From: OCS116 cluster bacterium AG-435-F03 | Lineage (GTDB): Bacteria; Pseudomonadota; Alphaproteobacteria; MED-G09 | DNA length: 64,000 nt | Assembly: GCA_003212795.1 (NCBI GenBank) | Contig: QCOV01000004.1 | Coordinates: 11,762 to 75,761 of the forward strand | Direction: 5' to 3' | In this document: piece after piece, positions 6,340-23,758 of the stretch | Position numbering within the stretch: position 1 is the stretch's first letter | Layout: the number at the start of each line of letters is the position of its first letter | The notes under the pieces: model-generated | Database searches by the model: none | What the model was told of the DNA's origin: nothing | What the model saw: the letters and a program-made list of their open reading frames with translations, nothing else | Translations under genes and position numbers: made by a program

Positions 6340-7461
6340 TTGGATATGAGTCTCATCAAAGAAGAGTTACAAACATCAAAAAAAAATTTAACACAAAGAA
6401 GAATTGTTACAAATGATATTGATTTGGATGATTTAAAAAATGGAGAAATAATAGTTCAAATTGAAAATTTTGCTTTCACATCTAACAATGTTACATACGG
6501 TGTTGCAGGTGAAATGATGGGTTATTGGCAATTTTTTCCAACTATGAATGATCCTGAGAACATATGGGGATGCATACCAATGTGGGGTTTTGCTGAAATA
6601 AAGTACTCAAATAATAAAGAATTAGAAGTTGGAGAAAGACTTTTTGGTTATTTTCCGGCATCTAATATTTTGACTTTGAAACCGATAAAAATTTCACAAA
6701 AAACTTTTATAGATGGTGAGGAACATCGAAAAGAATTACCTCCAGTTTACAATAATTACATAAGATTAAACAATGAAGATAATTATAATAAGAATAATGA
6801 CAATATAAGGGCTCTTTTATTTCCACTTCATATAACGTCTTTTTGTTTATGTGATTATCTTCAAAATGAAAATTATTTAGGGGCTGAACAGGTGATCATA
6901 GTAAGCGCATCTAGTAAAACAGCTATTGGTCTTGCTCAAGGTTTGCAAAGTGAAGAGAAAAAACCTGAAATTATTGGGTTAACTTCAAAAAGAAATTCTG
7001 AATTTGTAAAAAGCTTAAATTCATATGATCAGATTTATTCTTATGATGACCTTGGTGATATAAATATTAATAATTCTAGTGTAATGGTCGATATGGCTGG
7101 TAATAGAGAAATACTAGGAAAACTTCATAGCTCACTTGGAAATCACATGCTTAAGTGTATTACAGTTGGTATGACACATTGGGATAATGAAACAACAGCT
7201 GATGATGCAATGGGTCAACTCATGAATAGAGATAGAACTGAGTTCTTTTTTGCTCCAGATCATATCCAAAAAAGAATAAGTGACTGGGGAACAGATGGTT
7301 ACAATAAAAAAACAACATCTTTTATGGATGCTAGAGCCGAACAAAGCAAAAATTGGATGAACATTAAAGAAGTTTCAGGATTAAATAATTTTTTAGATAC
7401 TTATGATGAAGTTATTCAAGGTGATATAAATCCAAATGAAGGAATAATTGTTAATATCTAA
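6340..7461 (+). CDS. Hypothetical protein (possible Rossmann-like domain)
   Basis: 373 aa ORF with a good coding look; 'VIIVSASSKTAIGLAQGL' is nucleotide-binding-like. No firm family assignment. Confidence 0.4.
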   Translation: MDMSLIKEELQTSKKNLTQRRIVTNDIDLDDLKNGEIIVQIENFAFTSNNVTYGVAGEMMGYWQFFPTMNDPENIWGCIPMWGFAEIKYSNNKELEVGERLFGYFPASNILTLKPIKISQKTFIDGEEHRKELPPVYNNYIRLNNEDNYNKNNDNIRALLFPLHITSFCLCDYLQNENYLGAEQVIIVSASSKTAIGLAQGLQSEEKKPEIIGLTSKRNSEFVKSLNSYDQIYSYDDLGDININNSSVMVDMAGNREILGKLHSSLGNHMLKCITVGMTHWDNETTADDAMGQLMNRDRTEFFFAPDHIQKRISDWGTDGYNKKTTSFMDARAEQSKNWMNIKEVSGLNNFLDTYDEVIQGDINPNEGIIVNI

Positions 7462-11190: not shown

Positions 11191-11799
11191 ATGAACAAAT
11201 TTATTCTATTCGCTTTTGTAGTTTTATTTTTACTTTCATTAACCGAAACTTATGCGGGAGAAAAACACAATTCTGATGAATGGCAGATTAAAGCTTACTC
11301 AAGCGCGGCTCCTTCATTTATTGGTGATTTTGCAACAATTATAGGTGGGGATGGTAAAATACTTAGGGAAGGAACCAATGGTTGGACATGCCAAGCAGGC
11401 AATCCTAGACCTTTTCCTAAAGAAGGCTGGAAGGATGTTCATGAGGCTATGCCAGCATGTTCCGATAAGGAAGCAATCAAATGGATGATGGCATATATGC
11501 AGGGTAAGACACCTCAACTTGATAATGATGGCTGGATGTGGATGCTTCATGGTGATGTAGGAGAGGACAACTCTAAGGCTGGTATATTAAATGAAAAAGA
11601 TAGCACGCCAGGTCAATGGATTGAGTCTGGTCCACATTTAATGCTTATGCCAAAGGACCCATCTAGTTTGGACAATATGAATGCTGATTTTACAAATGGT
11701 GCCCCTTATGTGATGTTTCCAAAAACAATATGGGCACATGTAATGATTCCTGTTGAAGGTTATTATAAGTATCAAAAAGAATCAGAACCAAAAAAATAA
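11191..11799 (+). CDS. Secreted hypothetical protein
   Basis: Signal peptide 'MNKFILFAFVVLFLLSLTETYA'; several Cys and Trp; lies 9 nt upstream of the SDR gene. Confidence 0.4.
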   Translation: MNKFILFAFVVLFLLSLTETYAGEKHNSDEWQIKAYSSAAPSFIGDFATIIGGDGKILREGTNGWTCQAGNPRPFPKEGWKDVHEAMPACSDKEAIKWMMAYMQGKTPQLDNDGWMWMLHGDVGEDNSKAGILNEKDSTPGQWIESGPHLMLMPKDPSSLDNMNADFTNGAPYVMFPKTIWAHVMIPVEGYYKYQKESEPKK

Positions 11800-12625: not shown

Positions 12626-13969
12626 TTGAAATTAAAAAAATCAACTTTGTTTTTTTACAGCTTGGCAGAGATGCCTATAAATATCGCCCTTTTTCCTATC
12701 CTTGTTTTTATTCCTAAATTTTACACTGGTGAAATGGGTGTACCTTTAGCCTTAGCAGCAAATATCATTTTAGCGGTTCGTATTTTTGATGTTTTTACTG
12801 ACCCAGTAGTTGGTTACATCAATGACCGAACTAATACAAAATGGGGAAGAAGAAGACCATGGATTGCAATAGCTACACCCTTACTTATGGTAAGTATCTA
12901 TATGCTATTTATTCCTCCTGAAGGAGCTGGAGCTCTTCATCTTTTCTTATGGATGTTTCTTCTTTCAATAGGAACAACCATGCTCATTATACCTTACTAT
13001 GCTTGGGGTGCAGAGTTATCACCGGACTATAATGAGAGATCAAGAATTACTGGATGGAGATCTATTTCTGGAGTAGTTGGTAGTCTAAGCGCTCAACTTA
13101 TCCCAACTATAGCTCTTGTTTTCTTTGGTCTTGGCGGTAGCACAAATGTTTTGTATATCGTTGGGATTGCTAGTGTAATTATTATGCCCATATGTGTATT
13201 TTTAACTGTATCAAAAGTTCCTGAGTCTAAAGATTACATCAAATCAAACATCTCTCCGATCAAGGGTTTCAAAATTATGTTAGAAAACTCTCCATTTAAG
13301 AGATTAATAATGGCTTTTATGTTTGGAGGTATAGCTTTTTCCATAACAATTCCACTGTATTTATTCTTTATAACTTATGTTCTTAAGGCAGAAGAAATGG
13401 CTATATTTATGCTTACATTTTTTTATCTTACAAATATTGTTGCCGTTCCATTTTGGGTTTGGTTATCAAAGCAAATCGGAAAGCATAAGGCATATATTTG
13501 TAGTTTTGCAATGATTGCATTTGCGCATCCTTTTTATCTTCTTTTGGGTGAAGGAGATTTTTGGTGGATGTTACCTATTACCATTACTACGGGTTTTGCT
13601 GCTGGGGGTTTTGCGGCATTACCAAATTCAATGAAGGCAGATGTTATTGATCTAGATACATTAAAAAGCGGAGAAAATAGATCTGGCCTATTTTTCTCAT
13701 CGTGGTCATTAACTTCAAAATTAGCTGGATCTGTAGGAACATGGTTAGCATTAACAGCATTATCTTGGATTAGTTTTAATACGGGAACAGATGTTAGTAA
13801 CGGTCCGACTCAATTGTTAGGACTTAAGCTTTTATTCTCTACTCTTCCCTCTTTCTTTTTTATAGCTGCAATAATTATTATATGGAAGTATCCTATAACA
13901 GAAGAAATGCATTCAAAAATTCGAAATGAATTAAAAAATTCAAAAACCGAAAGAATTCTTGAAACTTAA
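12626..13969 (+). CDS. GPH-family (glycoside-pentoside-hexuronide) cation symporter, MFS
   Basis: Signature 'DPVVGYINDRTNTKWGRRRPW' as in MelB-type transporters; about 12 TM segments. Confidence 0.65.
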   Translation: MKLKKSTLFFYSLAEMPINIALFPILVFIPKFYTGEMGVPLALAANIILAVRIFDVFTDPVVGYINDRTNTKWGRRRPWIAIATPLLMVSIYMLFIPPEGAGALHLFLWMFLLSIGTTMLIIPYYAWGAELSPDYNERSRITGWRSISGVVGSLSAQLIPTIALVFFGLGGSTNVLYIVGIASVIIMPICVFLTVSKVPESKDYIKSNISPIKGFKIMLENSPFKRLIMAFMFGGIAFSITIPLYLFFITYVLKAEEMAIFMLTFFYLTNIVAVPFWVWLSKQIGKHKAYICSFAMIAFAHPFYLLLGEGDFWWMLPITITTGFAAGGFAALPNSMKADVIDLDTLKSGENRSGLFFSSWSLTSKLAGSVGTWLALTALSWISFNTGTDVSNGPTQLLGLKLLFSTLPSFFFIAAIIIIWKYPITEEMHSKIRNELKNSKTERILET

Positions 13970-14021
13970 GAAGTATTTAATCATTGTAAAATGATATATT
14001 TCTATTATTAAGGCATATCTT

Positions 14022-15461
14022 ATGAGTAACACCATTTCCAACAACACCTTACACTTATACACATTAGGTTCTGGTGCTGTTGGAGTTAAGAATTTATTGT
14101 TTGGATCATGGCTTTTAGTTTATTTTAATCAGATTTTAGGTCTTGAACCATTATTAGCATCTTATGCTCTTGCTATTGCTCTAGTATTTGATGCAATCTC
14201 AGACCCCCTGGTTGGCGCTTGGTCAGACCGTTTTAAATCAAAATGGGGAAGAAGACATCCATTTGTGTATTTAGCAATAATACCTTTCGGTTTAAGTGCG
14301 TATTTTCTTTATTCAATTCCTTCAGATACTTCTCAAACTGCACTTTTTATAAAATTATTAATTGCATCAATTCTTTTGCGAACATTGTTTACTTTTTATG
14401 AGACACCTAGAGCAGCAATTGGTCCAGAACTTATTACTGATTATGAAAGGCGTAACACCTTAAGTGGTTATGGTGTTTTATACGGCAATATGGGTTTGGG
14501 GATTATGAGCTATGCAATGCTAGCTTTTTTTCTTGTGGAAACTGAAACATTTTCAGGTTCACGTGCTTTTTTAAATCCTGAAGCTTATCCAAAATTTGGT
14601 CTTTTAGCTTGTTTTTTAATCATAGTCTTTGGTCTAGTATCTTCATTATCAACACACAAATATATTCCTGACATGGTTGAACCAGATCCTAAGAGTTTTA
14701 AATTTTCTGAATTTTGGAAAGAAATAGTTGAGTCTCTTTCAAATAGAAATTGGTTAGTTCTTTTTACTGCTGGAACTATTTTAGCACTTAATATTGGAAT
14801 ATTTTCAAGTTTAGATAATTATTTTAGTATTTATTTTTGGCAATGGACTCCAGAAGAAATAAGCTTATTTCCAATTATTATAGCGCTTCCAGTTGTTTTA
14901 GCAGGATTCTTTGCGGCACCTTTAGCTAAAGGAAAGAGCAAAAAAAACTTTGCCATAGGCTTATTTCTTATCAATCTCATTGTTGAACCAATGCCAATTT
15001 GGTTAAGATTATTGGATCCATATGTACCAATGCAAATTTTTCCTGAAAATGGAACAGATGCTCTTTGGTGGACAATTATTATATTTTTATGTGTTGGTTA
15101 TTTTTTAAGAACAGCAGGATGGATATTAGTAATATCAATGGTTTATGATGTTGTTGAAGATGGTCAATTAACGACTGGACGAAGAGATGAAGGTCTTTAT
15201 TTGTCCGCAAATGGCTTTATTCAAAAAATAATTAGTGGACTAGGTGTTGTGTTTGTTGGTTTTCTTTTAGAGTTTGTAGGTTTTGATGTAAAAAACCCAA
15301 CAGTATTAGAAATGCAGGAACCAATTTACAGATTGGCATTTTTTCAAGCTATCTTAGGTCCAATTCTAACTTTAGCATCAATCTCATGTATGTTTTTCTA
15401 TAATATTTCTAAATCTTCGCATGAAGAAGCTCTTAAATCTTTAGAAATAGAAAAAGATTAA
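14022..15461 (+). CDS. GPH-family cation symporter, MFS (tandem paralog)
   Basis: Signature 'DPLVGAWSDRFKSKWGRRHPF'; about 12 TM segments. Confidence 0.65.
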   Translation: MSNTISNNTLHLYTLGSGAVGVKNLLFGSWLLVYFNQILGLEPLLASYALAIALVFDAISDPLVGAWSDRFKSKWGRRHPFVYLAIIPFGLSAYFLYSIPSDTSQTALFIKLLIASILLRTLFTFYETPRAAIGPELITDYERRNTLSGYGVLYGNMGLGIMSYAMLAFFLVETETFSGSRAFLNPEAYPKFGLLACFLIIVFGLVSSLSTHKYIPDMVEPDPKSFKFSEFWKEIVESLSNRNWLVLFTAGTILALNIGIFSSLDNYFSIYFWQWTPEEISLFPIIIALPVVLAGFFAAPLAKGKSKKNFAIGLFLINLIVEPMPIWLRLLDPYVPMQIFPENGTDALWWTIIIFLCVGYFLRTAGWILVISMVYDVVEDGQLTTGRRDEGLYLSANGFIQKIISGLGVVFVGFLLEFVGFDVKNPTVLEMQEPIYRLAFFQAILGPILTLASISCMFFYNISKSSHEEALKSLEIEKD

Positions 15462-15543
15462 TAATTTTTAACTGTTCAAGAATAAATAGAGACAAAGATA
15501 ATCAATTAATTTATCTTTATATAGCTTTTGGAGGTTACTACCT

Positions 15544-17127
15544 ATGAGCAAGTTTCAAGTAATTTTCTTGACCATCTCACTGGTGATTTCTGGTTGTGCG
15601 GAAGAGGTAAATGAAAAAATATCTGGTGATAGTTTTCAACAAACCTATTGGGTTGAAGATTATACAAAAGATTTAAATTTTCCTTGGGCAATAACTTGGT
15701 TACCAAATGGAGATCTATTAGTTACTGAGAGATTAGGAAAAATTAAACTAATACGCAAAGGTATCGTTGTTAGTGAAATACAAGGTGTTCCGGAAGTAAT
15801 GGTATCTAGTCCATTTGATGGTTTATTGGATATCAAACTTGATCCTGATTTCGAAACACAGCCTTATATCTATCTCTCATATACCAAAGGTACAACAACT
15901 GAAAGGGTAGGAGTTGTTTATCGGGCAAAAATTAAAGACAACAAATTAGTTGAAGGGAAAGAAATATTTAATACATCTCCTCCAGCCCCAACTGGTGGGC
16001 CAAATATAACAAGAATTAATTTTCTTTCGGATAAATCCTTAGTTGCAGCAGTTGGGTCTAGCGGTCAGCATGCTTATGGCATGGTGCAAAGATTAGATGG
16101 AGATATAGGAAAGATAATAAGAATATATAGAGATGGGACCGTACCCAAAGATAACGCTCTTTCAGCTGATAACCCGGATGCTAAAGCGGAATTATGGGCA
16201 ACTGGTCTACGTTCTATTGGAGGTTTAACACTAGATAACAACGATCAACTTTGGGGTGTAGAAATGGGACCACAAGGTGGAGATGAATTAAACCTTATTG
16301 AAGGTGGAGGAAATTATGGTTTTCCTCTGATTAGTTGGGGTTTTGATTATTCTGGTCGAGCTTTATCAGAAAGACAAACAGCAGCTGGTTTTGTTGATCC
16401 AATAGTAACTTGGAGTCCTTCAATTTCACCTTATGGAATTACTTTTTATCAAGGCGAAGCCTTCCCTAACTGGAATGGTGATTTTTTTATAGGTGTTTTG
16501 GGTGATCAAACAATTATAAGAATGAGAATTCGTGATGGTAAGGTATTAGAGCAACAAGATTTACTTCCTTATCATAATGAGAGAATTCGTTCGGTAGAGA
16601 CTGGCCCAGATGGATTTATATATGCAGTTACAGATTCCTCTAATGGTAAAATTATTCGTTTAAGACCAGGTAAGCCATCTCAAAAAGACCTTGCTAATGT
16701 ATCTAAACCATTCCCTATGCCAAAAACTAACAGTATTGTTGAAAGATTAAGACTACATGGTGTAATGCAAGATGAGGAAACCATGCTAGCTATTCAAGCT
16801 GCGTATGATCAAGAAAGAGCTGAGTTTATTTACAATCAAAATTGTGTAAGCTGTCATAGCTTAAAAGCCAATGCTGAAAGTAATATTGGCCCTCATCTAG
16901 AGTCAATTGCTGGTCGAAGATCTGGGTCTTTACCTAATTATAATTATTCTTCTGCTATGAAAATGAATAATAAAACAAGTGTAATATGGGACTCACGAAC
17001 AATTGCTGCCTATATAACCAATCCTCAAGCAATTTTTCCTGGTACCAAAATGGCTTCTACCCCTCTTAAATTTGAGGATGCTGTTCAGGTTAGTAATTAT
17101 TTAACAAGATTAAAAAATGAAGAGTAA
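15544..17127 (+). CDS. PQQ-dependent sugar dehydrogenase (soluble glucose/sorbosone dehydrogenase-like beta-propeller) fused to a C-terminal cytochrome c domain; lipoprotein
   Basis: Lipobox 'VISGCA'. Propeller motifs ('ITWLPNGDLLVTER', 'GGNYGFPLISWG'). C-terminal heme-binding 'CVSCHS' (CxxCH). Confidence 0.6.
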   Translation: MSKFQVIFLTISLVISGCAEEVNEKISGDSFQQTYWVEDYTKDLNFPWAITWLPNGDLLVTERLGKIKLIRKGIVVSEIQGVPEVMVSSPFDGLLDIKLDPDFETQPYIYLSYTKGTTTERVGVVYRAKIKDNKLVEGKEIFNTSPPAPTGGPNITRINFLSDKSLVAAVGSSGQHAYGMVQRLDGDIGKIIRIYRDGTVPKDNALSADNPDAKAELWATGLRSIGGLTLDNNDQLWGVEMGPQGGDELNLIEGGGNYGFPLISWGFDYSGRALSERQTAAGFVDPIVTWSPSISPYGITFYQGEAFPNWNGDFFIGVLGDQTIIRMRIRDGKVLEQQDLLPYHNERIRSVETGPDGFIYAVTDSSNGKIIRLRPGKPSQKDLANVSKPFPMPKTNSIVERLRLHGVMQDEETMLAIQAAYDQERAEFIYNQNCVSCHSLKANAESNIGPHLESIAGRRSGSLPNYNYSSAMKMNNKTSVIWDSRTIAAYITNPQAIFPGTKMASTPLKFEDAVQVSNYLTRLKNEE

Positions 17128-18268
17128 GAAATCTTTTTCTAGAAGAGCTTTTTTAGCTGGTACAGCTGCAACAAGTGCATTAGCTCTTTCTCCAAAACCT
17201 TTAAAAAGTGATGAAAGCATCTTCTCATCAAGAACTAGGTATCGACCATCTTTGGGAATCGTTAAACTCAATGGTAATGAAAATCCATATGGACCTAGTC
17301 AAAAAGCTTTAGCAGCTATTGATGAGGCATCTAAGCATTCTGGATATTATGTAAACTCATCAGGTGAGAAATTATGTTCAATGATTGCTGAAAAACATGG
17401 ATTAACAACTGATCATATAGTCTTGAGCTCAGGGTCTACAGCAGTTCTTATGAATGTAGCATTGGCATCACTTAAAAGAGGCCATATTTTAGCACCAGAC
17501 CTCTTTTGGGACAGTACAGCAAATTTAGCTTCAGATGTTAGTCAAAATAAATTGAAGCGCTTACCAAGTAATATAAAGCATGAAATAAATCTTAAAGTTA
17601 TGAGGGACTCAATTACTAAAGATATATCTCTAGTCCATATAACAAACCCAAATAACCCGACTGGCTCTATTTTAAATAACTTAGAATTAAAAGAATTTTG
17701 TAGAGAAATATCTAATTATTGTACGGTATTAATTGATGAAGCATATAATGATCTTACTGATAAACCGAATTCTTCAACTATGATTCCTCTTATCAAAGAA
17801 GGTAAGAATATTATTGTAACAAGAACATTTTCAAAAATTCATGGTCTTGCTGGTTTACGAATAGGCTATATGATAGCTAAACCCGAAATAATCAGTGAAG
17901 TTATGAAGTTTGGTTTTATTGGAAACTGGACAACTAATAAGGCAGGTGTTGCTGCAGCAATAGCCAGCTATAATGATGAAATTTTCTTATCACATTCTAA
18001 ATCAATGATAAATGAGGGTAAAGAGATGGTGATGGAGGCAATTAAAAAGAATGGTCTTTCCGCTTTACCTTCTAAAGCTAATTTCATTTTTGTTAACTTA
18101 GATTCCTTAAATGCTGATCAATTCAAAAAAAGTATGGCTAAGAGAAATATAATTATATCTGGAATTTTTAGAAATCATAAAAACTGGTCACGAGTAAGCA
18201 TGGGAAAGATTGCTGATTTACAAAAATATATAAATGCTTTGCCGGAGGTTTTGGAAGAAATTAGCTAG
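17117..18268 (+). CDS. Tat-exported PLP-dependent aminotransferase, class I/II (HisC-like)
   Basis: Twin-arginine signal 'FSRRAFLAGTAATSALA'. HisC-like 'LNGNENPYGPS', 'NPNNPTG', 'TFSKIHGLAGLRIGY' (PLP lysine). The start overlaps the upstream gene by 11 nt. Confidence 0.6.
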   Translation: MKSKKSFSRRAFLAGTAATSALALSPKPLKSDESIFSSRTRYRPSLGIVKLNGNENPYGPSQKALAAIDEASKHSGYYVNSSGEKLCSMIAEKHGLTTDHIVLSSGSTAVLMNVALASLKRGHILAPDLFWDSTANLASDVSQNKLKRLPSNIKHEINLKVMRDSITKDISLVHITNPNNPTGSILNNLELKEFCREISNYCTVLIDEAYNDLTDKPNSSTMIPLIKEGKNIIVTRTFSKIHGLAGLRIGYMIAKPEIISEVMKFGFIGNWTTNKAGVAAAIASYNDEIFLSHSKSMINEGKEMVMEAIKKNGLSALPSKANFIFVNLDSLNADQFKKSMAKRNIIISGIFRNHKNWSRVSMGKIADLQKYINALPEVLEEIS

Positions 18269-19337
18269 TCTTATTTATCAACTCACCTACATCCTTATAA
18301 ATTAAACAGGCCATAAGGATAAGACCAATATAACCTATAGAAGGATATATAAGGTTAATAAGCTGACCAAAAGGTAAAAGGTTTCCACCAAACCAACAAA
18401 TTAAAGTTAAAGATATGGCTAACAATCTAAAGCGTAAAGTATGCTCATCAGCAAAGCGTCTACAAATTGTCCACATTAAAGGTGTAACTGTTGTATAAAT
18501 TCCAAGAAAAATAACAGCAGCAAAAATTGATCCATACACTGGAAAAACCTTTGTTGCTAATATAAGTATTGGAACTTCAGCGTCATAGACAGATTGAATA
18601 TTGCCCATAAGAGCTAAAACAACAATAGTCATAGCGCTTATAAAAAGAAATGGGCCAAGCAATGCTACGCCCTTGACCTCAAAATTACTTTTAATTGTTG
18701 CGCCCACTAAAGGTAAAAACCCATATAATCCAGGAAGAGAAAAAACAGCATATAAAATTGCAGAAAAAAACCAATTTTCAGAGGCTCTTAGGATTTCTAA
18801 TCCATCAGATAAAAGGATTCCCTCTTTTAATGACAATGAATCATCTAATATTGTGGAAACGGCAGTAGCTAAAGTAAGAATGACTATTATTGGCCCAATA
18901 ATTCCAAGCACTTCAATAATTTTATTTAAACCTAACAAAAGCGTAATAGTTGCACAAAATGCCATTAATCCTGATCCAAAAATGACAGGTAAACCATAAG
19001 CTTGTTCTAAAGTAGCTCCTACACCACCTAACATTACGCCGTAAACAGCAACAATCATAATCATAGTGTACCAAGTCATAAAAATACCAAGATAACGACC
19101 GCAAAAATGCCGGAAAGCATCCTCGTTAGTTCGAAGATCATTTTGTTTACCAGCTTTAAGCAATGAGAAACAGGTATAAATCATGAGAAAACCACAAATT
19201 AATAGACCTATTAATCCTTTACTTCCAAAACCAACAAAGAATTGCATGGCCTCCTGTCCAGTTGAAAAAGCGCCACCTATCAGTAATGCTATATATGCAC
19301 CTGAAATACTAAATATTCTAATCCATTGATTATTCAT
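18261..19337 (-). CDS. Polytopic membrane protein, transporter-like (YkvI-like?)
   Basis: 358 aa with 10 or more hydrophobic helices; overlaps neighbours by 8 nt. Confidence 0.4.
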   Translation of the reverse strand: MNNQWIRIFSISGAYIALLIGGAFSTGQEAMQFFVGFGSKGLIGLLICGFLMIYTCFSLLKAGKQNDLRTNEDAFRHFCGRYLGIFMTWYTMIMIVAVYGVMLGGVGATLEQAYGLPVIFGSGLMAFCATITLLLGLNKIIEVLGIIGPIIVILTLATAVSTILDDSLSLKEGILLSDGLEILRASENWFFSAILYAVFSLPGLYGFLPLVGATIKSNFEVKGVALLGPFLFISAMTIVVLALMGNIQSVYDAEVPILILATKVFPVYGSIFAAVIFLGIYTTVTPLMWTICRRFADEHTLRFRLLAISLTLICWFGGNLLPFGQLINLIYPSIGYIGLILMACLIYKDVGELINKTS

Positions 19338-20019
19338 AAAGATTATATAACCACATAACTGATCTACTATGATCTATAAACCCTGTATCTTTAGCAACCT
19401 CGGGATCTGACAGGGTTTCAAGGAACTTTTCTATATCAGAATAATAACCTTCTGCGGTACCTTCAAAATCAAATATATCTACTCCTGCTGAATTAGCAGC
19501 TTTCTCAGAAAATTCTTCATCAGCATGGAATTGCCTATAACCTTGTAAACCTGAAACATTTTCTCTTACATCGGCTGCATGATGATCTAACCAGTGTTCG
19601 TGCCAGTCTTTCCTAGACCATTCTAAAGGACGTCTTAAAACCATATTAAGAAATAAAGGTTCGCTTCCAGGAACAATTACATGTTCATCACCTACAAGAG
19701 CAGCACTTTTAGAAGCGTCAATTAAAGATCCTAATTTTTCCCCTATACCTTGTATTGCCTCAACAAGTGATTCATATGATGCGTCTTCAGACCTGAACTC
19801 TATTATATTATCAAAAGGTGGTTGCTCAGGTAAATCATCTGGTTGACCATCTTGAGGAACACTTGCAGTTGGATCATCTGGAACCCTTATTGCCCTTCTA
19901 AATTGTAAGTTAGGTAAATTATGATTTATAGACTTGCACTCTTTATTAAGAATATCATCTATTTTATCTCTATTATTAATATCTGAAGCACTTAATAATA
20001 ATTGTAATTTTTTAATCAT
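19330..20019 (-). CDS. Hypothetical protein with acidic/Pro-rich linker
   Basis: 229 aa ORF packed tightly in the operon; no family recognised. Confidence 0.35.
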   Translation of the reverse strand: MIKKLQLLLSASDINNRDKIDDILNKECKSINHNLPNLQFRRAIRVPDDPTASVPQDGQPDDLPEQPPFDNIIEFRSEDASYESLVEAIQGIGEKLGSLIDASKSAALVGDEHVIVPGSEPLFLNMVLRRPLEWSRKDWHEHWLDHHAADVRENVSGLQGYRQFHADEEFSEKAANSAGVDIFDFEGTAEGYYSDIEKFLETLSDPEVAKDTGFIDHSRSVMWLYNLYE

Positions 20020-20026
20020 AAAAACC

Positions 20027-20941
20027 TTAGTGGGAATAAGGAACTAACGGACCAGTTCTATATGTGCCTCTGGATAATTCAGTAGCCACACTTGGAGCTA
20101 TTGGTAACCAACCTAATTCACTACGTGCACGATCAGATGTAATAATACACTCAATACAAGATAAATCTGCAAGCTCACCAAGAGCTTCTCTAGCTTCCTC
20201 AAGAGGCCAATGAACTACCTCAATTCCTGGGCCGAAATAATCTGCAATTAAAGTTGCATAATCTTTACTGCATGTAACTTCATCAGAAGCTGCATTATAG
20301 ATACCTTGAGCAGACTCATTTGTTACTATTTTAAGATAAAGATCTGAAAGTGGATCTACATGTATTGTACTGACCAAATTAGTACCTTCACCAATATGAA
20401 GAGATTTTCCTGATTCTCGAGCTCTAAAAATTAATCCTGTAAGCCAACCCCCTGCATGACCATAAATTAAACCCGGCCTTACGCTAGCCCCTCTAATGCC
20501 ATTCTCTGACATGGCTACTACTTGCAAATCATGACGTGCGCGCCATGCTCGAAGAGGATGTGGATTTTCAATTGGTTCGCTCTCATCACGAGGAACACCT
20601 TTAGTATCATTGTAAACAACACTTGCGCTAGTTGTAACAAAAACCTTACCAGTATCTTTAAATGCCTCCTCAACTGCCAAAATGAAATTCGTATCTAGTT
20701 TTTCCATTTCCTCATCATGAGAAGCTCCAATATGTACAACAGCGTCACATTCATCTGCTGTTTCACTAATAATTTCTGTATCAGCAAAACCACCAGCAAT
20801 CCATTTAACATTATCTCTCTCTTCAAGATTAGGAATATGGTGAGGTCTAACGAGTGCATGGACCTCATGACCATTATTGACAAAATGATTTAGTGCATGG
20901 GCACCTGCATGACCAGTGCAGCCCGTCATTAATACTTTCAT
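20027..20941 (-). CDS. NAD(P)-dependent epimerase/dehydratase family (extended SDR)
   Basis: 'MKVLMTGCTGHAGAHAL' Rossmann motif. RBS 'GAGGAGGGG' lies 6 nt upstream of the ATG at 20941, so the longer ORF-track start at 20956 is unlikely. Confidence 0.6.
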   Translation of the reverse strand: MKVLMTGCTGHAGAHALNHFVNNGHEVHALVRPHHIPNLEERDNVKWIAGGFADTEIISETADECDAVVHIGASHDEEMEKLDTNFILAVEEAFKDTGKVFVTTSASVVYNDTKGVPRDESEPIENPHPLRAWRARHDLQVVAMSENGIRGASVRPGLIYGHAGGWLTGLIFRARESGKSLHIGEGTNLVSTIHVDPLSDLYLKIVTNESAQGIYNAASDEVTCSKDYATLIADYFGPGIEVVHWPLEEAREALGELADLSCIECIITSDRARSELGWLPIAPSVATELSRGTYRTGPLVPYSH

Positions 20942-21010
20942 AGAACCCCTCCTCATAAAAACTTAACTTAAAATAGAATATTAATTAATTCAACCGGAGG
21001 ATATGGTTCA

Positions 21011-21072: not shown

Positions 21073-23436
21073 TTAAAATTTATAATTTAATTTAAGACCA
21101 TAATTTCTTCCTGGTAAAGGAACCTCATTTTTAACAAATGAAGCGTGATTTCTGGCCACTTCGTCAAGAAGATTCTTACCAAATAATGAGAAACTTATTT
21201 CATTTTGATTATTTAGAACAAAAGTCTTTTTTAAAGAGAAATCAAGCATTTCATAGGCTTCGGTTTCAGTTTCACCTTCACCAATATCATTTTGCTCTTC
21301 AACATCTTTATAAGTCAATCTTGCTAAAAGATTATCCTCTGAATAAGAAACAGTTATAATATTTCTTGCAGGTACAATTCTTGGGATATTCATACCATTC
21401 TTAAATTCACCTGTAACTGAGTCTCTGCCGAGTGATAAAGTAAGATTACCTCTATCAAAAGTAAAAATCTGACTTATTTCAAACTCATAACCTTCAAGTT
21501 CAGCATCTTTTTGTAGGAAGTTTGCTAAAATAAGACCACCATGGTCATCATGATCACCATGCTCTTCATGCTCTTCATGCTCTTCTTCCGTTTCATCTTG
21601 TAGATAGATGTAGTTATCAATGTCATTTTTGAAAATATTACCTCTAAAAGAGAAATTATTATTTTTATAAAATATATTCAAATCAATGTTGTTAGCACTC
21701 TCAGATTCAAGTTCTGTATTGCCAACTTCAAAGCGGCCAGTAACTAAATGAGCTCCATTCATATATAGCTCTACTGGTGATGGTGCTCTTTCAACTCTTG
21801 CTAGGCCTAGACTAACTGTAAAGTTATCATTAACTTCTCTCGAAAAATTAACAGCAAAACTTGTTTCGCTATAATCTTTATTAAAGTAGTCAATTTCCTC
21901 TTCATGTTCGTCTTCATCATGATGTTCGTCTTCATCGTGATGTTCGTCTTCATCATGATGTTCGTCTTCATCATGATGCTCTTCTTCATGATGAGCTAAT
22001 GAACCTTTACGAGAAATATCATCATACCTAATACCGAAATCAATATCTAATAATCCGAATTCTTTAGACAAATAATAACCAATGGATAATTCTTCATTAT
22101 CTGTTGGCCTCATAAAAGCTTCAGCACCAACTATAGAAATTTCTTCTTCTACATAATTGATAGATAATTTTTGCTTAACAACATCATTTGTTAAATCAAA
22201 AACAAAACCTAGTTCCTTGGATTTATTTTCAAAATTTGTTGGACCTTCAGCATGGCCATGTTCATCATGTTCATCTTCATCATGATGCTCTTCTTCATCG
22301 TGATGCTCTTCTTCATCGTGATGCTCTTCTTCAGCATGTTGCTCAGTATGAAGATAGTCTGAAGATCTAAAGAAATAATTAATTTTTTTCAGCCAAGAAC
22401 TATTAACTACATAAGAACCTTCAACATCAAAAATATCAGATTCTGTATTGGAAAAGATTCTTTCACCTTCATGTTCATCATGACCTTCATGTTCGTCTTC
22501 ATCATGATGCTCTTCTTCATCGTGATGCTCATCTTCATCATGATGCTCTTCTTTACCATGCATTCCATGATCTTCATGACCATCACCATGGAATGGAACA
22601 CCAAAAAGACTTTCAGAGTTCTTATAAGAAATACCGAAATATCCCCATTCACCTGTTTTTGAAATACCAAATCTTTGTGATGTTGACTCAAAGTCAGAGT
22701 TTTCTAAGTAACCAAGATTTTCTTCTTCGTGGTGCTCATCTTCATCGTGATGCTCATCTTCATCGTGATGCTCATCTTCATCGTGATGCTCATCCTCGGT
22801 ATGAATTATTGCACCATTTGGAATATCATAATTATCAAACTGAGAATCTTTATAAGCCAAACTTACATTGAAACCACCAATGTTATTTTGATAAGAAAAA
22901 CTTCCACTTTCTCCGTCGTTAACAGATTGGGTTTCTAAAGCAATATTAAATTTGGGTTCTTTAAAATCTTCTCTAGCAATTGTATTATCAATGATATTTA
23001 CTATGCCTCCAACAGTCCCACTAGAATATAGAAGTGATGATGGTCCTCTAACTATTTCTATTTGTTGAATATCATTTAAATCAACCTCATTCATATGATC
23101 GTCACCAATAGTAGAAACATCTCTCAGAGTTTTACCATTATTCATAATTCTAACTCTATTACCTGATAAACCACGAATGATAGGATGACCAACAGCTGCG
23201 CCAAAATCTGAAGATTGAATTCCAAGAAGATTATCAAGTGACTCACCTAAGCTAACTGTGGTGTCAAAAGTTGCATCATCTCCCCCAATTACATGAATTG
23301 GATCGTCTAGGTCTGATAGGTTTGTATCAATGTAAGATGATGTAACTATAATTTCATCTATCTCATTCGAATATATTTTTTCGTTGTGTATTATTAAAGT
23401 ACCCACAAACAAAAGTACTAAAAGTAAATTTTTCAA
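21073..23436 (-). CDS. TonB-dependent outer-membrane receptor with five His/Asp/Glu-rich (HHDEDE)n inserts
   Basis: TTG start with RBS 'AAAGGAGAT'. Signal peptide. TonB box 'DEIIVTSSY'. Plug and barrel organisation. C-terminal '...LKLNYKF' ending in Phe. The five His-rich inserts are listed as repeats below. Confidence 0.8.
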   Translation of the reverse strand: MKNLLLVLLFVGTLIIHNEKIYSNEIDEIIVTSSYIDTNLSDLDDPIHVIGGDDATFDTTVSLGESLDNLLGIQSSDFGAAVGHPIIRGLSGNRVRIMNNGKTLRDVSTIGDDHMNEVDLNDIQQIEIVRGPSSLLYSSGTVGGIVNIIDNTIAREDFKEPKFNIALETQSVNDGESGSFSYQNNIGGFNVSLAYKDSQFDNYDIPNGAIIHTEDEHHDEDEHHDEDEHHDEDEHHEEENLGYLENSDFESTSQRFGISKTGEWGYFGISYKNSESLFGVPFHGDGHEDHGMHGKEEHHDEDEHHDEEEHHDEDEHEGHDEHEGERIFSNTESDIFDVEGSYVVNSSWLKKINYFFRSSDYLHTEQHAEEEHHDEEEHHDEEEHHDEDEHDEHGHAEGPTNFENKSKELGFVFDLTNDVVKQKLSINYVEEEISIVGAEAFMRPTDNEELSIGYYLSKEFGLLDIDFGIRYDDISRKGSLAHHEEEHHDEDEHHDEDEHHDEDEHHDEDEHEEEIDYFNKDYSETSFAVNFSREVNDNFTVSLGLARVERAPSPVELYMNGAHLVTGRFEVGNTELESESANNIDLNIFYKNNNFSFRGNIFKNDIDNYIYLQDETEEEHEEHEEHGDHDDHGGLILANFLQKDAELEGYEFEISQIFTFDRGNLTLSLGRDSVTGEFKNGMNIPRIVPARNIITVSYSEDNLLARLTYKDVEEQNDIGEGETETEAYEMLDFSLKKTFVLNNQNEISFSLFGKNLLDEVARNHASFVKNEVPLPGRNYGLKLNYKF
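21538..21591 (-). repeat. Repeat tract 5 encoding 'TEEEHEEHEEHGDHDDHGG'
   Basis: Plus strand 'ctcttcatg' 9-nt unit repeated three times. Confidence 0.7.
21898..21996 (-). repeat. Repeat tract 4 encoding 'AHHEEEHHDEDEHHDEDEHHDEDEHHDEDEHEEE'
   Basis: Plus strand 'gttcgtcttcatcatgat' repeated four times, near-perfect. Confidence 0.85.
22249..22341 (-). repeat. Repeat tract 3 encoding 'HAEEEHHDEEEHHDEEEHHDEDEHDEHGHAEG'
   Basis: Plus strand 'gatgctcttcttcatcgt' repeated three times. Confidence 0.8.
22462..22587 (-). repeat. Repeat tract 2 encoding 'HGDGHEDHGMHGKEEHHDEDEHHDEEEHHDEDEHEGHDEHEGE'
   Basis: Imperfect tandem 18-nt units (catcatgatg/ctcttcttcatcgtgatg). Confidence 0.75.
22723..22803 (-). 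repeat. In-frame tandem 18-nt repeat tract 1 encoding 'HTEDEHHDEDEHHDEDEHHDEDEHHEEE'
   Basis: Plus strand shows 'gatgctcatcttcatcgt' repeated three times. Confidence 0.8.
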
Positions 23437-23473: not shown

Positions 23474-23758
23474 TTAAATTTGAGGAGGTCCTCTGGAGTA
23501 AAATTTAGAAATATTGTTGTCTAAAAATTGATTATCTACTTTCTGAATAAAATAAAAAGTAGTATGGAATTGATCCCCAAAAGTTGCTATTTGATTATCA
23601 AACTCAGGGGCAACATTAACACAAAAATCACAATCTATTTCTACAGACATATGATCATGATGATCATGATGTTCGTGCAATATCTCTTCGGCTGAAACCG
23701 AAGTAAAAAATAACAAAGCTATAAAGAAAGCCAGTGTTTTATTAGATAAATTGTGCAT
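23474..23758 (-). CDS. Small secreted His-rich protein (candidate periplasmic metal-binding partner of the receptor)
   Basis: Signal peptide 'MHNLSNKTLAFFIALLFFTSVSA', then 'EEILHEHHDHHDHMSVEIDCDFC'. The stop lies 37 nt upstream of the receptor start on the same strand. Confidence 0.5.
   Translation of the reverse strand: MHNLSNKTLAFFIALLFFTSVSAEEILHEHHDHHDHMSVEIDCDFCVNVAPEFDNQIATFGDQFHTTFYFIQKVDNQFLDNNISKFYSRGPPQI

Follow-up and report, generated by a model that had tools for sequence, protein, structure and literature searches.

Do two overlapping genes for putative periplasmic enzymes encode two steps of one pathway? The question is raised by a locus of OCS116 cluster bacterium AG-435-F03, in a stretch of 64,000 nucleotides of contig QCOV01000004.1 (the window; positions refer to it). 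There the gene of a 527-aa lipoprotein with a six-bladed propeller of the glucose/sorbosone dehydrogenase (GSDH) type and a C-terminal cytochrome c (DH; 15544..17127, + strand) runs into the gene of a 383-aa HisC-like class I/II aminotransferase of a PtaA-like family with a twin-arginine translocation (Tat) signal (AT; 17117..18268, + strand). Both proteins are of already recognised kinds. An earlier note on this DNA had described the propeller with its CxxCH haem domain, the lipoprotein, the 11-nt overlap, the HisC-like class I/II enzyme and the twin-arginine signal, and all of these descriptions hold. It went on to propose a joint periplasmic oxidation/transamination step. We find that the pairing is young and lineage-restricted and is no conserved pathway, and that the propeller belongs to a cytochrome-fused subfamily whose catalytic histidine has been replaced by proline. 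Periplasmic chemistry based on pyridoxal 5'-phosphate (PLP) is rare, and pyoverdine tailoring is the one established role in the very large Tat-bearing HisC-like family. The locus provides a tangible case, open to expression, of a Tat-bearing transaminase that shares its transcription unit with a candidate partner enzyme.

A young and lineage-restricted gene pair

The DH stop (17127) lies beyond the AT start (17117), and the two reading frames share 11 nt (17117..17127, + strand, ATGAAGAGTAA). The same overlap with a near-identical junction recurs in our loci L084, L086 and L173. DH of L173 is identical in protein sequence to that of the window; the pair with its 11-nt overlap is present there as well as in L084/L085/L089 (DH 78%, AT 80% identity) and in L086/L087 (DH 74%, AT 71%). 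The pair is confined to one narrow clade in which DH is at least 74% identical. Across the pair-bearing relatives both genes show dS values of 1.05-1.54 and dN/dS values of 0.10-0.14, as expected under purifying selection (AT against its relatives likewise gave 0.10-0.14), and the junction AAAAATGAAGA[GA]TAA is kept at dS>1. The genes upstream are less constant. In the window, two symporter genes of the MFS_2/GPH type (12626..15461, + strand) lie immediately 5' of DH, whereas L084, L085 and L086 have a peroxidase gene upstream of the pair in place of the symporters, both of which are found about 6.5 kb off (downstream in L084 and L086) and unlinked to the pair. A truncated AT beside an identical DH in L174 was considered as a pseudogene and rejected, the truncation being a run of Ns (scaffold gap, 6483-6582).

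Outside this clade the two genes part. In the sister lineages L169/L170 (67%), L171 (66%) and L090 (65%) the DH locus is syntenic and AT is absent. The order there is DH, a convergent gene for a 358-aa multi-pass membrane protein (in the window 18261..19337, − strand) and EthD (19330-20019), with 5-43 nt between DH and the membrane-protein gene. An NAD epimerase gene (in the window 20027-20956) follows EthD in L171, the sole AT-less sister contig long enough to show it. All lineages with a DH of 65% identity or more have kept this block of membrane protein, EthD and epimerase in synteny with DH; in the window the stops of AT and of the membrane-protein gene overlap by 8 nt (18261-18268). DH relatives at 60-63% identity stand in unrelated contexts and have no AT. 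Seen from the other side, tblastn at 1e-5 within 10 kb of 83 other AT loci found a DH relative in none, and a profile of 29 DH homologues had no match below 1e-3 among 1,235 open reading frames (ORFs) from AT loci. A metagenome scan with the DH profile returned mostly cytochrome-less GSDH relatives of about 37% identity and yielded five informative loci.

The earlier note had named a pair that is not kept together in other genomes as a case that would refute its reading, and this is largely what we find, as the pair occurs in close relatives only. Most likely, and by parsimony, the ancestor of a single subclade gained the AT gene by insertion between DH and the membrane-protein gene that converges on it. 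Being young and lineage-restricted, the pairing cannot serve to argue for a conserved pathway. Elsewhere both enzyme families function without their counterpart, so that a metabolic link between the two would be a lineage-specific add-on.

The Tat signal of the aminotransferase

AT begins with MKSKKSFSRRAFLAGTAATSALA/LS. In this putative twin-arginine signal peptide (residues 1-23, 17117..17185, + strand) an n-region of charge +5 is followed by the motif S8-R-R-A-F-L13 (17138-17155, + strand), an h-region and an AxA site, with predicted cleavage after A21-L22-A23. The h-region AFLAGTAATSALALS is weakly hydrophobic (mean Kyte-Doolittle value 1.44 vs 2.0 for the Sec-type h-region of DH). A true start downstream of the signal, which the earlier note had named as a case that would undo its reading, is not indicated: the next methionine is residue 89, past the invariant block K50/N54-E55-N56-P57. 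A start at Met89 would remove these invariant residues, so a shorter, cytoplasmic form of AT is implausible.

The signal is shared by the relatives of AT. The pattern [SN]RRxF[LF] is present in 117/120 of the best homologues (47-98% identity), and the residues that flank it have diverged; conservation of the arginines against a diverging background makes a Tat signal far more than a chance match. Among genomic relatives of 30-53% identity, drawn from Gammaproteobacteria, Alphaproteobacteria, Bacteroidota, Verrucomicrobiota, Acidobacteriota, Gemmatimonadota and Marinimicrobia, at least 74/82 have the twin arginines, and the eight misses are high-GC loci at which the crude ORF start was over-extended. 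Of the 150 best-matching representatives of 50%-identity clusters, 133 were full-length, and 117 of these have the motif. Judged by these alignments, the Tat signal of AT is real and a trait of its family, and we infer that AT is exported through Tat in the host organism. For one family member the matter is experimental: PA2531 of Pseudomonas aeruginosa, with the signal MPALSRRSFVTLTALASSSILLSPRAFA, is a Tat substrate (PMC6085387). The earlier note is right in general that PLP aminotransferases are cytoplasmic with few exceptions; the present case is not unprecedented, since PtaA and PvdN are known and the Tat-bearing family is very large.

Fold and family of the aminotransferase

The class I/II fold of AT is well supported by Pfam Aminotran_1_2 (PF00155; E 1.7e-40, 139.8 bits vs cutoff 19.7). 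Lys240, the predicted PLP Schiff-base lysine (codon 17834..17836, + strand, motif TFSKIHGLAGLR), is invariant in 29 homologues, as are N180, D207, Y210 and R359. The closer affiliation is less sharp, as the best NCBIfam models all stay under their curated cutoffs. PRK09105/NF006580 scores highest (227.5 bits vs cutoff 444), with a match to residues 5-380 that takes in the signal region; hisC TIGR01141 reaches 208.3 bits (E 1.4e-61) against a trusted cutoff of 276.55, and the PtaA model NF051461 matches residues 6-375 with 193.2 bits (E 5e-57) against an equivalog cutoff of 500. By this last cutoff AT is a relative of PtaA and not its orthologue. The wider family is large: a search of 50%-identity representatives with AT gave 24,922 matches at E<=1e-3, of which 767 were at E<=1e-30.

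The dehydrogenase and its altered active site

The DH start codon lies 9 nt downstream of a Shine-Dalgarno-like GGAGG (15530..15534, + strand, read from the sequence). Its N-terminus, MSKFQVIFLTISLVISGC, is a Sec-type signal with a lipobox at its end: I-S-G-C18 fits the pattern [LVI][ASTVI][GAS]C and follows the hydrophobic QVIFLTISLV, so that the translation gives a Sec/signal peptidase II (SPII)-type signal peptide at 15544..15597 (+ strand) with the lipobox LVISG-C (Cys18). In an alignment of DH homologues the consensus at this place is 'L...GC', and a crude regular expression detected a lipobox-like motif in 56/89 cytochrome-fused homologues.

The propeller (residues 44-372, 15673..16659, + strand) is a clear GSDH domain (Pfam PF07995, E 1.4e-97, 327 bits vs cutoff 25), whereas the score with NCBIfam TIGR03606, 104 bits, is far under the cutoff of 434.55. 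It is followed by a class I c-type cytochrome domain (residues 428-523, 16825..17112, + strand; Pfam PF00034, 23.6 bits vs cutoff 21.3) with the haem motif CVSCH (C434-V-S-C437-H438, 16843-16857, + strand) and Met503 as the axial methionine. The NCBIfam domain of cytochrome c-550 CycA also matches the C-terminus (E 5.6e-18), and phmmer finds mitochondrial-type cytochromes c at about E 1e-16. Since C434, C437, H438 and M503 are invariant across 29 homologues down to 35% identity, the alignment identifies a class I haem c site with predicted His/Met ligation. The closest solved relatives of DH are Escherichia coli Asd (2g8s; phmmer E 7e-57, 34% identity) and 7cdy. An AF2 model of DH (pLDDT 77.9, pTM 0.80) has the same two as top Foldseek matches (2g8s at E 2.5e-28), with 3a9g and 1c9u also found; these matches cover the propeller part, and no solved chain in the Foldseek search spans a GSDH propeller fused to a cytochrome c.

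The general base of soluble glucose dehydrogenase (sGDH) is His144, which Arg228 assists (PMC6881810). DH has Pro153 at this position (codon 16000..16002, + strand): where Asd reads GNHFGGR, DH reads GGPNITR. The exchange is not a peculiarity of the window. It spans the cytochrome-fused GSDH homologues of our set (P0121-P0216), the general-base column being proline in 91% of the 88 homologues with a fused cytochrome and histidine in 89% of the 27 without one, and this is essentially the sole column that strongly discriminates the two groups. In DH the histidine of 'EHGP' is replaced too. The residues of the cofactor site are retained: R157, R223, R347 and R349 and the loop GPxGGDELN (GPQGGDELN in DH) are conserved in fused and canonical propellers alike, so that DH has the loop of the metal (Ca) site and the arginines that correspond to Arg228, Arg406 and Arg408 of sGDH, where the mapping onto Arg406 and Arg408 is our assumption. 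This systematic replacement of histidine by proline in the whole cytochrome-fused subfamily, with the PQQ-binding arginines kept (PQQ, pyrroloquinoline quinone), is the new point of our analysis. By its conserved residues the subfamily probably still binds PQQ. As the arginines and the loop are kept and the histidine is not, the subfamily needs other acid-base chemistry or another class of substrate. It constitutes an uncharacterised enzyme class that is worth a biochemical test.

Genomic context of the aminotransferase family

Neighbour clustering for the AT family, and the Pfam domains of its 115 putative operon partners, point to transport. A TauE/SafE permease gene is directly upstream of AT in 17 gammaproteobacterial loci. 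In marine Gammaproteobacteria the transaminase gene nearly always comes next after the permease gene, and such loci (L002, L005-L011, L013-L017, L022, L025, L175 and L176) often have a convergent TonB receptor gene downstream, and the AT groups next nearest to that of the window (53-55% identity) show the same arrangement of TauE, AT and convergent TonB receptor. In a SAR86 single-cell genome (L007:3141-5179) the order is tatC, tauE, AT. One protein of 690 aa (P0285) was called as a TauE-AT fusion, which may be a read-through of gene calling. The permease could supply or remove a co-substrate of periplasmic transamination. In Bacteroidota, a 370-aa AEC/Mem_trans-like membrane protein is encoded directly downstream of AT in 28 loci, and in 8-10 of these SusC, SusD and a small lipoprotein precede AT, which makes the transaminase part of an uptake locus resembling a polysaccharide utilisation locus. 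The Tat motif of the Bacteroidota enzymes is NRRxWLK (loci L026-L078, e.g. L033:4569-12075). The convergent 358-aa membrane protein of the window has no similarity to the AEC-like permease at E 1e-5. Given the TauE, TonB/SusCD and AEC-like partners, the core context of the family is transport, composed of TonB-dependent uptake across the outer membrane and an inner-membrane permease.

Redox partners occur in about 3-8 of 82 AT loci and are heterogeneous. Pfam Amino_oxidase is found in four operon partners. At L048:8445-10019 and L074:2563-3528, both from Bacteroidota, genes flanking AT carry twin-arginine signals; the L048 protein is flavin amine oxidase-like and the L074 product is a candidate for a second such enzyme. 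Such Tat-signal and Amino_oxidase partners suggest periplasmic amine processing.

Host lineage and flanking genes

The window has a low GC content (about 0.32) and contains no second copy of AT or of a GSDH gene. The source lineage is marine and very abundant: the 90%-identity clusters of the two proteins have 576 and 337 members. A scan of the whole window with Rfam gave zero matches and thus no riboswitch clue to the substrate. Promoters and terminators predicted between 11000 and 21200 were fewer than in shuffled sequences and are uninformative on the limits of the operon. The 358-aa membrane protein has no Pfam or NCBIfam match. Beyond the epimerase gene lies a TonB-dependent receptor (Plug and barrel; 21073-23436, − strand) with several long insertions of His/Asp/Glu-rich repeats (HHDEDEHHDEDEHH...), adjoined by a gene for a 94-aa secreted protein that contains HEHHDHHDH (23474-23758, − strand). 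Together the two resemble an uptake system that captures metal. The close relative L173 has, at the receptor position, a gene for 716 aa instead of 787, with no Pfam match on record. On the other side of the pair, a 202-aa secreted protein without a family match (11191-11799, + strand) is 81% conserved in L084.

Discussion

From the domains, signals, overlap, pair distribution and purifying selection observed here, the explanation that we favour, and hold to be moderately probable, is that DH and AT are two self-sufficient periplasmic enzymes that were brought into one transcription unit by a recent insertion and have since been kept co-expressed by selection. DH would be exported as a Sec-dependent lipoprotein and act as a lipid-anchored, quinohaemoprotein-like enzyme. 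Its propeller would most likely oxidise a sugar-like or carbonyl-hydrate substrate, by a chemistry that is presumably non-canonical owing to the proline at the place of the general base, and the electrons would pass from the propeller to the protein's own His/Met-ligated c-type haem and on to the respiratory chain; we infer both the use of PQQ and this direction of electron flow. AT would fold with PLP in the cytoplasm, leave it through Tat and carry out transamination in the periplasm, with an amine or an amino-acid moiety on the one side and a keto acceptor on the other. After its insertion beside DH in the ancestor of the subclade, it would have been co-transcribed with DH and possibly translationally coupled to it.

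Several points weigh against this reading. The overlap and its junction have outlived synonymous saturation while the genes upstream were reshuffled, which argues that co-expression has been selected and is no accident. The polarity of the insertion rests on parsimony and on short metagenomic contigs, and a loss of AT in three lineages is possible. The lost histidine leaves a PQQ-dependent dehydrogenase activity of DH unproven. Genes for Tat, for cytochrome c maturation (Ccm) and for PQQ synthesis were not seen in the annotated parts of the window, which at 64 kb is too small for this to be informative. Finally, AT has periplasmic redox partners in other lineages. In L001, whose AT is at 59% the nearest outgroup of the window AT, an operon begins with AT; a divergent eight-bladed PQQ-like propeller follows after 20 nt, and then a PatB-like lyase and a short-chain dehydrogenase/reductase (SDR). 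In L056 (Marinimicrobia) the genes after AT encode, in this order, a cytochrome c of 156 aa, a complete PQQ dehydrogenase (PF01011, E 4e-180) and an NHL propeller. In L064 (Bacteroidia) AT is preceded by a protein of the 3-keto-disaccharide hydrolase family and then, directly upstream of AT, by a 643-aa DUF7133 protein with a cytochrome c; the DUF7133 protein, a remote GSDH-like propeller, is the sole and marginal (E 0.009) match of the DH profile. By analogy, these three pairings favour a real coupling between the transaminase and a periplasmic dehydrogenase.

Such a coupling is the strongest alternative, to which we assign a real but minor chance: DH and AT would form a two-step periplasmic pathway, in either direction. 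In one version, AT deaminates an amine obtained by outer-membrane uptake, such as an amino sugar or amino alcohol, and DH oxidises the resulting carbonyl or hemiacetal, so that the cell gains nitrogen in the form of amino acid and electrons for respiration. In the other, a keto compound made by DH (e.g. a 2-keto acid from an osone, in the manner of sorbosone dehydrogenase) is the acceptor that regenerates PLP from pyridoxamine 5'-phosphate (PMP). In favour of a pathway, HisC-type enzymes act on an amino-alcohol phosphate as their natural substrate, and a review states that it is unknown how periplasmic PLP is regenerated from PMP (PMC6206403). Further support comes from the predicted periplasmic location of both proteins, from the junction, which three sublineages have kept at dS>1 although their upstream genes differ, from the independent pairings of L001, L056 and L064, from the Tat-signal genes that flank AT in L048 (the amine oxidase-like product) and L074, and from the Pro153 active site, which fits a non-standard substrate. 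On the other hand, orthologous DH genes at the same locus of three sister lineages do without AT, none of the 83 AT loci has DH, the dominant partners of AT are permeases and TonB/SusCD transporters, and the few redox partners are heterogeneous. Moreover, streamlined marine genomes often overlap unrelated genes, and AT also has the 8-nt overlap with its convergent neighbour. The earlier note took the export of a folded PLP enzyme next to a periplasmic dehydrogenase to imply a joint step. That step is possible, given the kept overlap and the three analogues, but it is not implied by the data.

A bolder version, which we consider rather improbable, is that PtaA-like Tat transaminases and periplasmic propeller/cytochrome c dehydrogenases are a recurrent, convergently assembled module that deaminates and then oxidises, with instances in the present clade, L001, L056 and L064 and including the retuned propeller. 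If this were true, oligotrophic bacteria of the sea, among others, would deaminate amino sugars or amino alcohols for which they have no means of import. The nitrogen would be kept as amino acid and the electrons of the carbonyl would go to respiration, and the propeller of the cytochrome-fused subfamily without histidine would be retuned for a non-sugar substrate.

Our preferred reading of two self-sufficient enzymes treats DH as a PQQ dehydrogenase. That its propeller is instead a binding or lactonase-like protein, or that DH is a haem redox protein with a substrate-binding propeller, seems to us distinctly unlikely, even if proline at the general-base position in most fused homologues and the replaced histidine of 'EHGP' are what one would expect of such a protein and the GSDH fold is also found in HHIP and lactonase-like propellers, lower in the Foldseek list. 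The four arginines that hold the PQQ carboxylates in sGDH and Asd are invariant in the fused clade, as is the metal-site loop, and a fused c-type cytochrome is the electron outlet expected of a quinoprotein, as in type II quinohaemoprotein alcohol dehydrogenases (ADHs). In addition, more than 25% of the fungal AA12 PQQ enzymes have no general-base histidine (PMC6881810). That AT is an ordinary cytoplasmic HisC with a fortuitous twin arginine is highly improbable, since, against its TIGR01141 match, the label 'histidinol-phosphate aminotransferase' borne by homologues in their sources and its HisC-like best PDB relatives, stand the sub-cutoff score of that match (208 bits), a signal kept across phyla down to 30% identity, the experimental Tat export of PA2531, usual neighbours that are TauE permeases and TonB receptors, the missing alternative start downstream of the signal and the absence of his genes near AT among the annotated genes of the window.

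Comparison with known systems

The nearest known system is PtaA of Pseudomonas fluorescens and PA2531 of P. aeruginosa (Ringel, Draeger and Brueser 2017, cited in PMC6206403). PtaA is a normal PLP transaminase whose oddity is its transport through Tat, folded and with its cofactor, to act in the periplasm, and homologues exist in species that make no pyoverdine (PMC6206403). In pyoverdine producers PtaA acts on the glutamate side chain of pyoverdine. It shares with AT the HisC-like class I/II fold and, at the N-terminus, a twin-arginine signal with SRRxF and an AxA site that is about as long in both, which implies a periplasmic location. AT differs in a PtaA model score far under the cutoff, in that no pyoverdine context is apparent (no NRPS or pvd genes among the annotated genes of the 64-kb window) and in its genomic partner, which is a dehydrogenase in the window and a TauE permease plus a TonB receptor in close relatives of AT. 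PvdN, which tailors pyoverdine, is likewise a PLP enzyme that reaches the periplasm in folded form by way of Tat, but it is of another PLP fold family and forms a succinamide instead of transaminating. HisC itself (PDB 3ly1, 3get and 1fg3) has the fold and the PLP residues K240, D207, N180, Y210 and R359 in common with AT, which scores under the cutoff, bears a Tat signal and lies outside a his operon.

For DH, the references are Asd/YliI (2g8s) and the sGDH of Acinetobacter calcoaceticus (1c9u/1cq1), periplasmic six-bladed GSDH propellers whose PQQ-binding arginines and GPxGGDE(L/I)N loop are conserved in DH; DH departs from them by Pro153 in place of the general-base histidine, by the added C-terminal cytochrome c and by the lipoprotein anchor. 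Type II quinohaemoprotein ADHs (PDB 1kv9 and 1yiq) also consist of a PQQ propeller followed by a fused, electron-carrying c-type cytochrome, but their propeller is eight-bladed and unrelated to that of DH. A 2026 preprint mentions in passing that some six-bladed PQQ proteins bear haem domains (bioRxiv 10.64898/2026.07.10.737718); those proteins are CcPDH/AA12-like, whereas DH is Asd-like.

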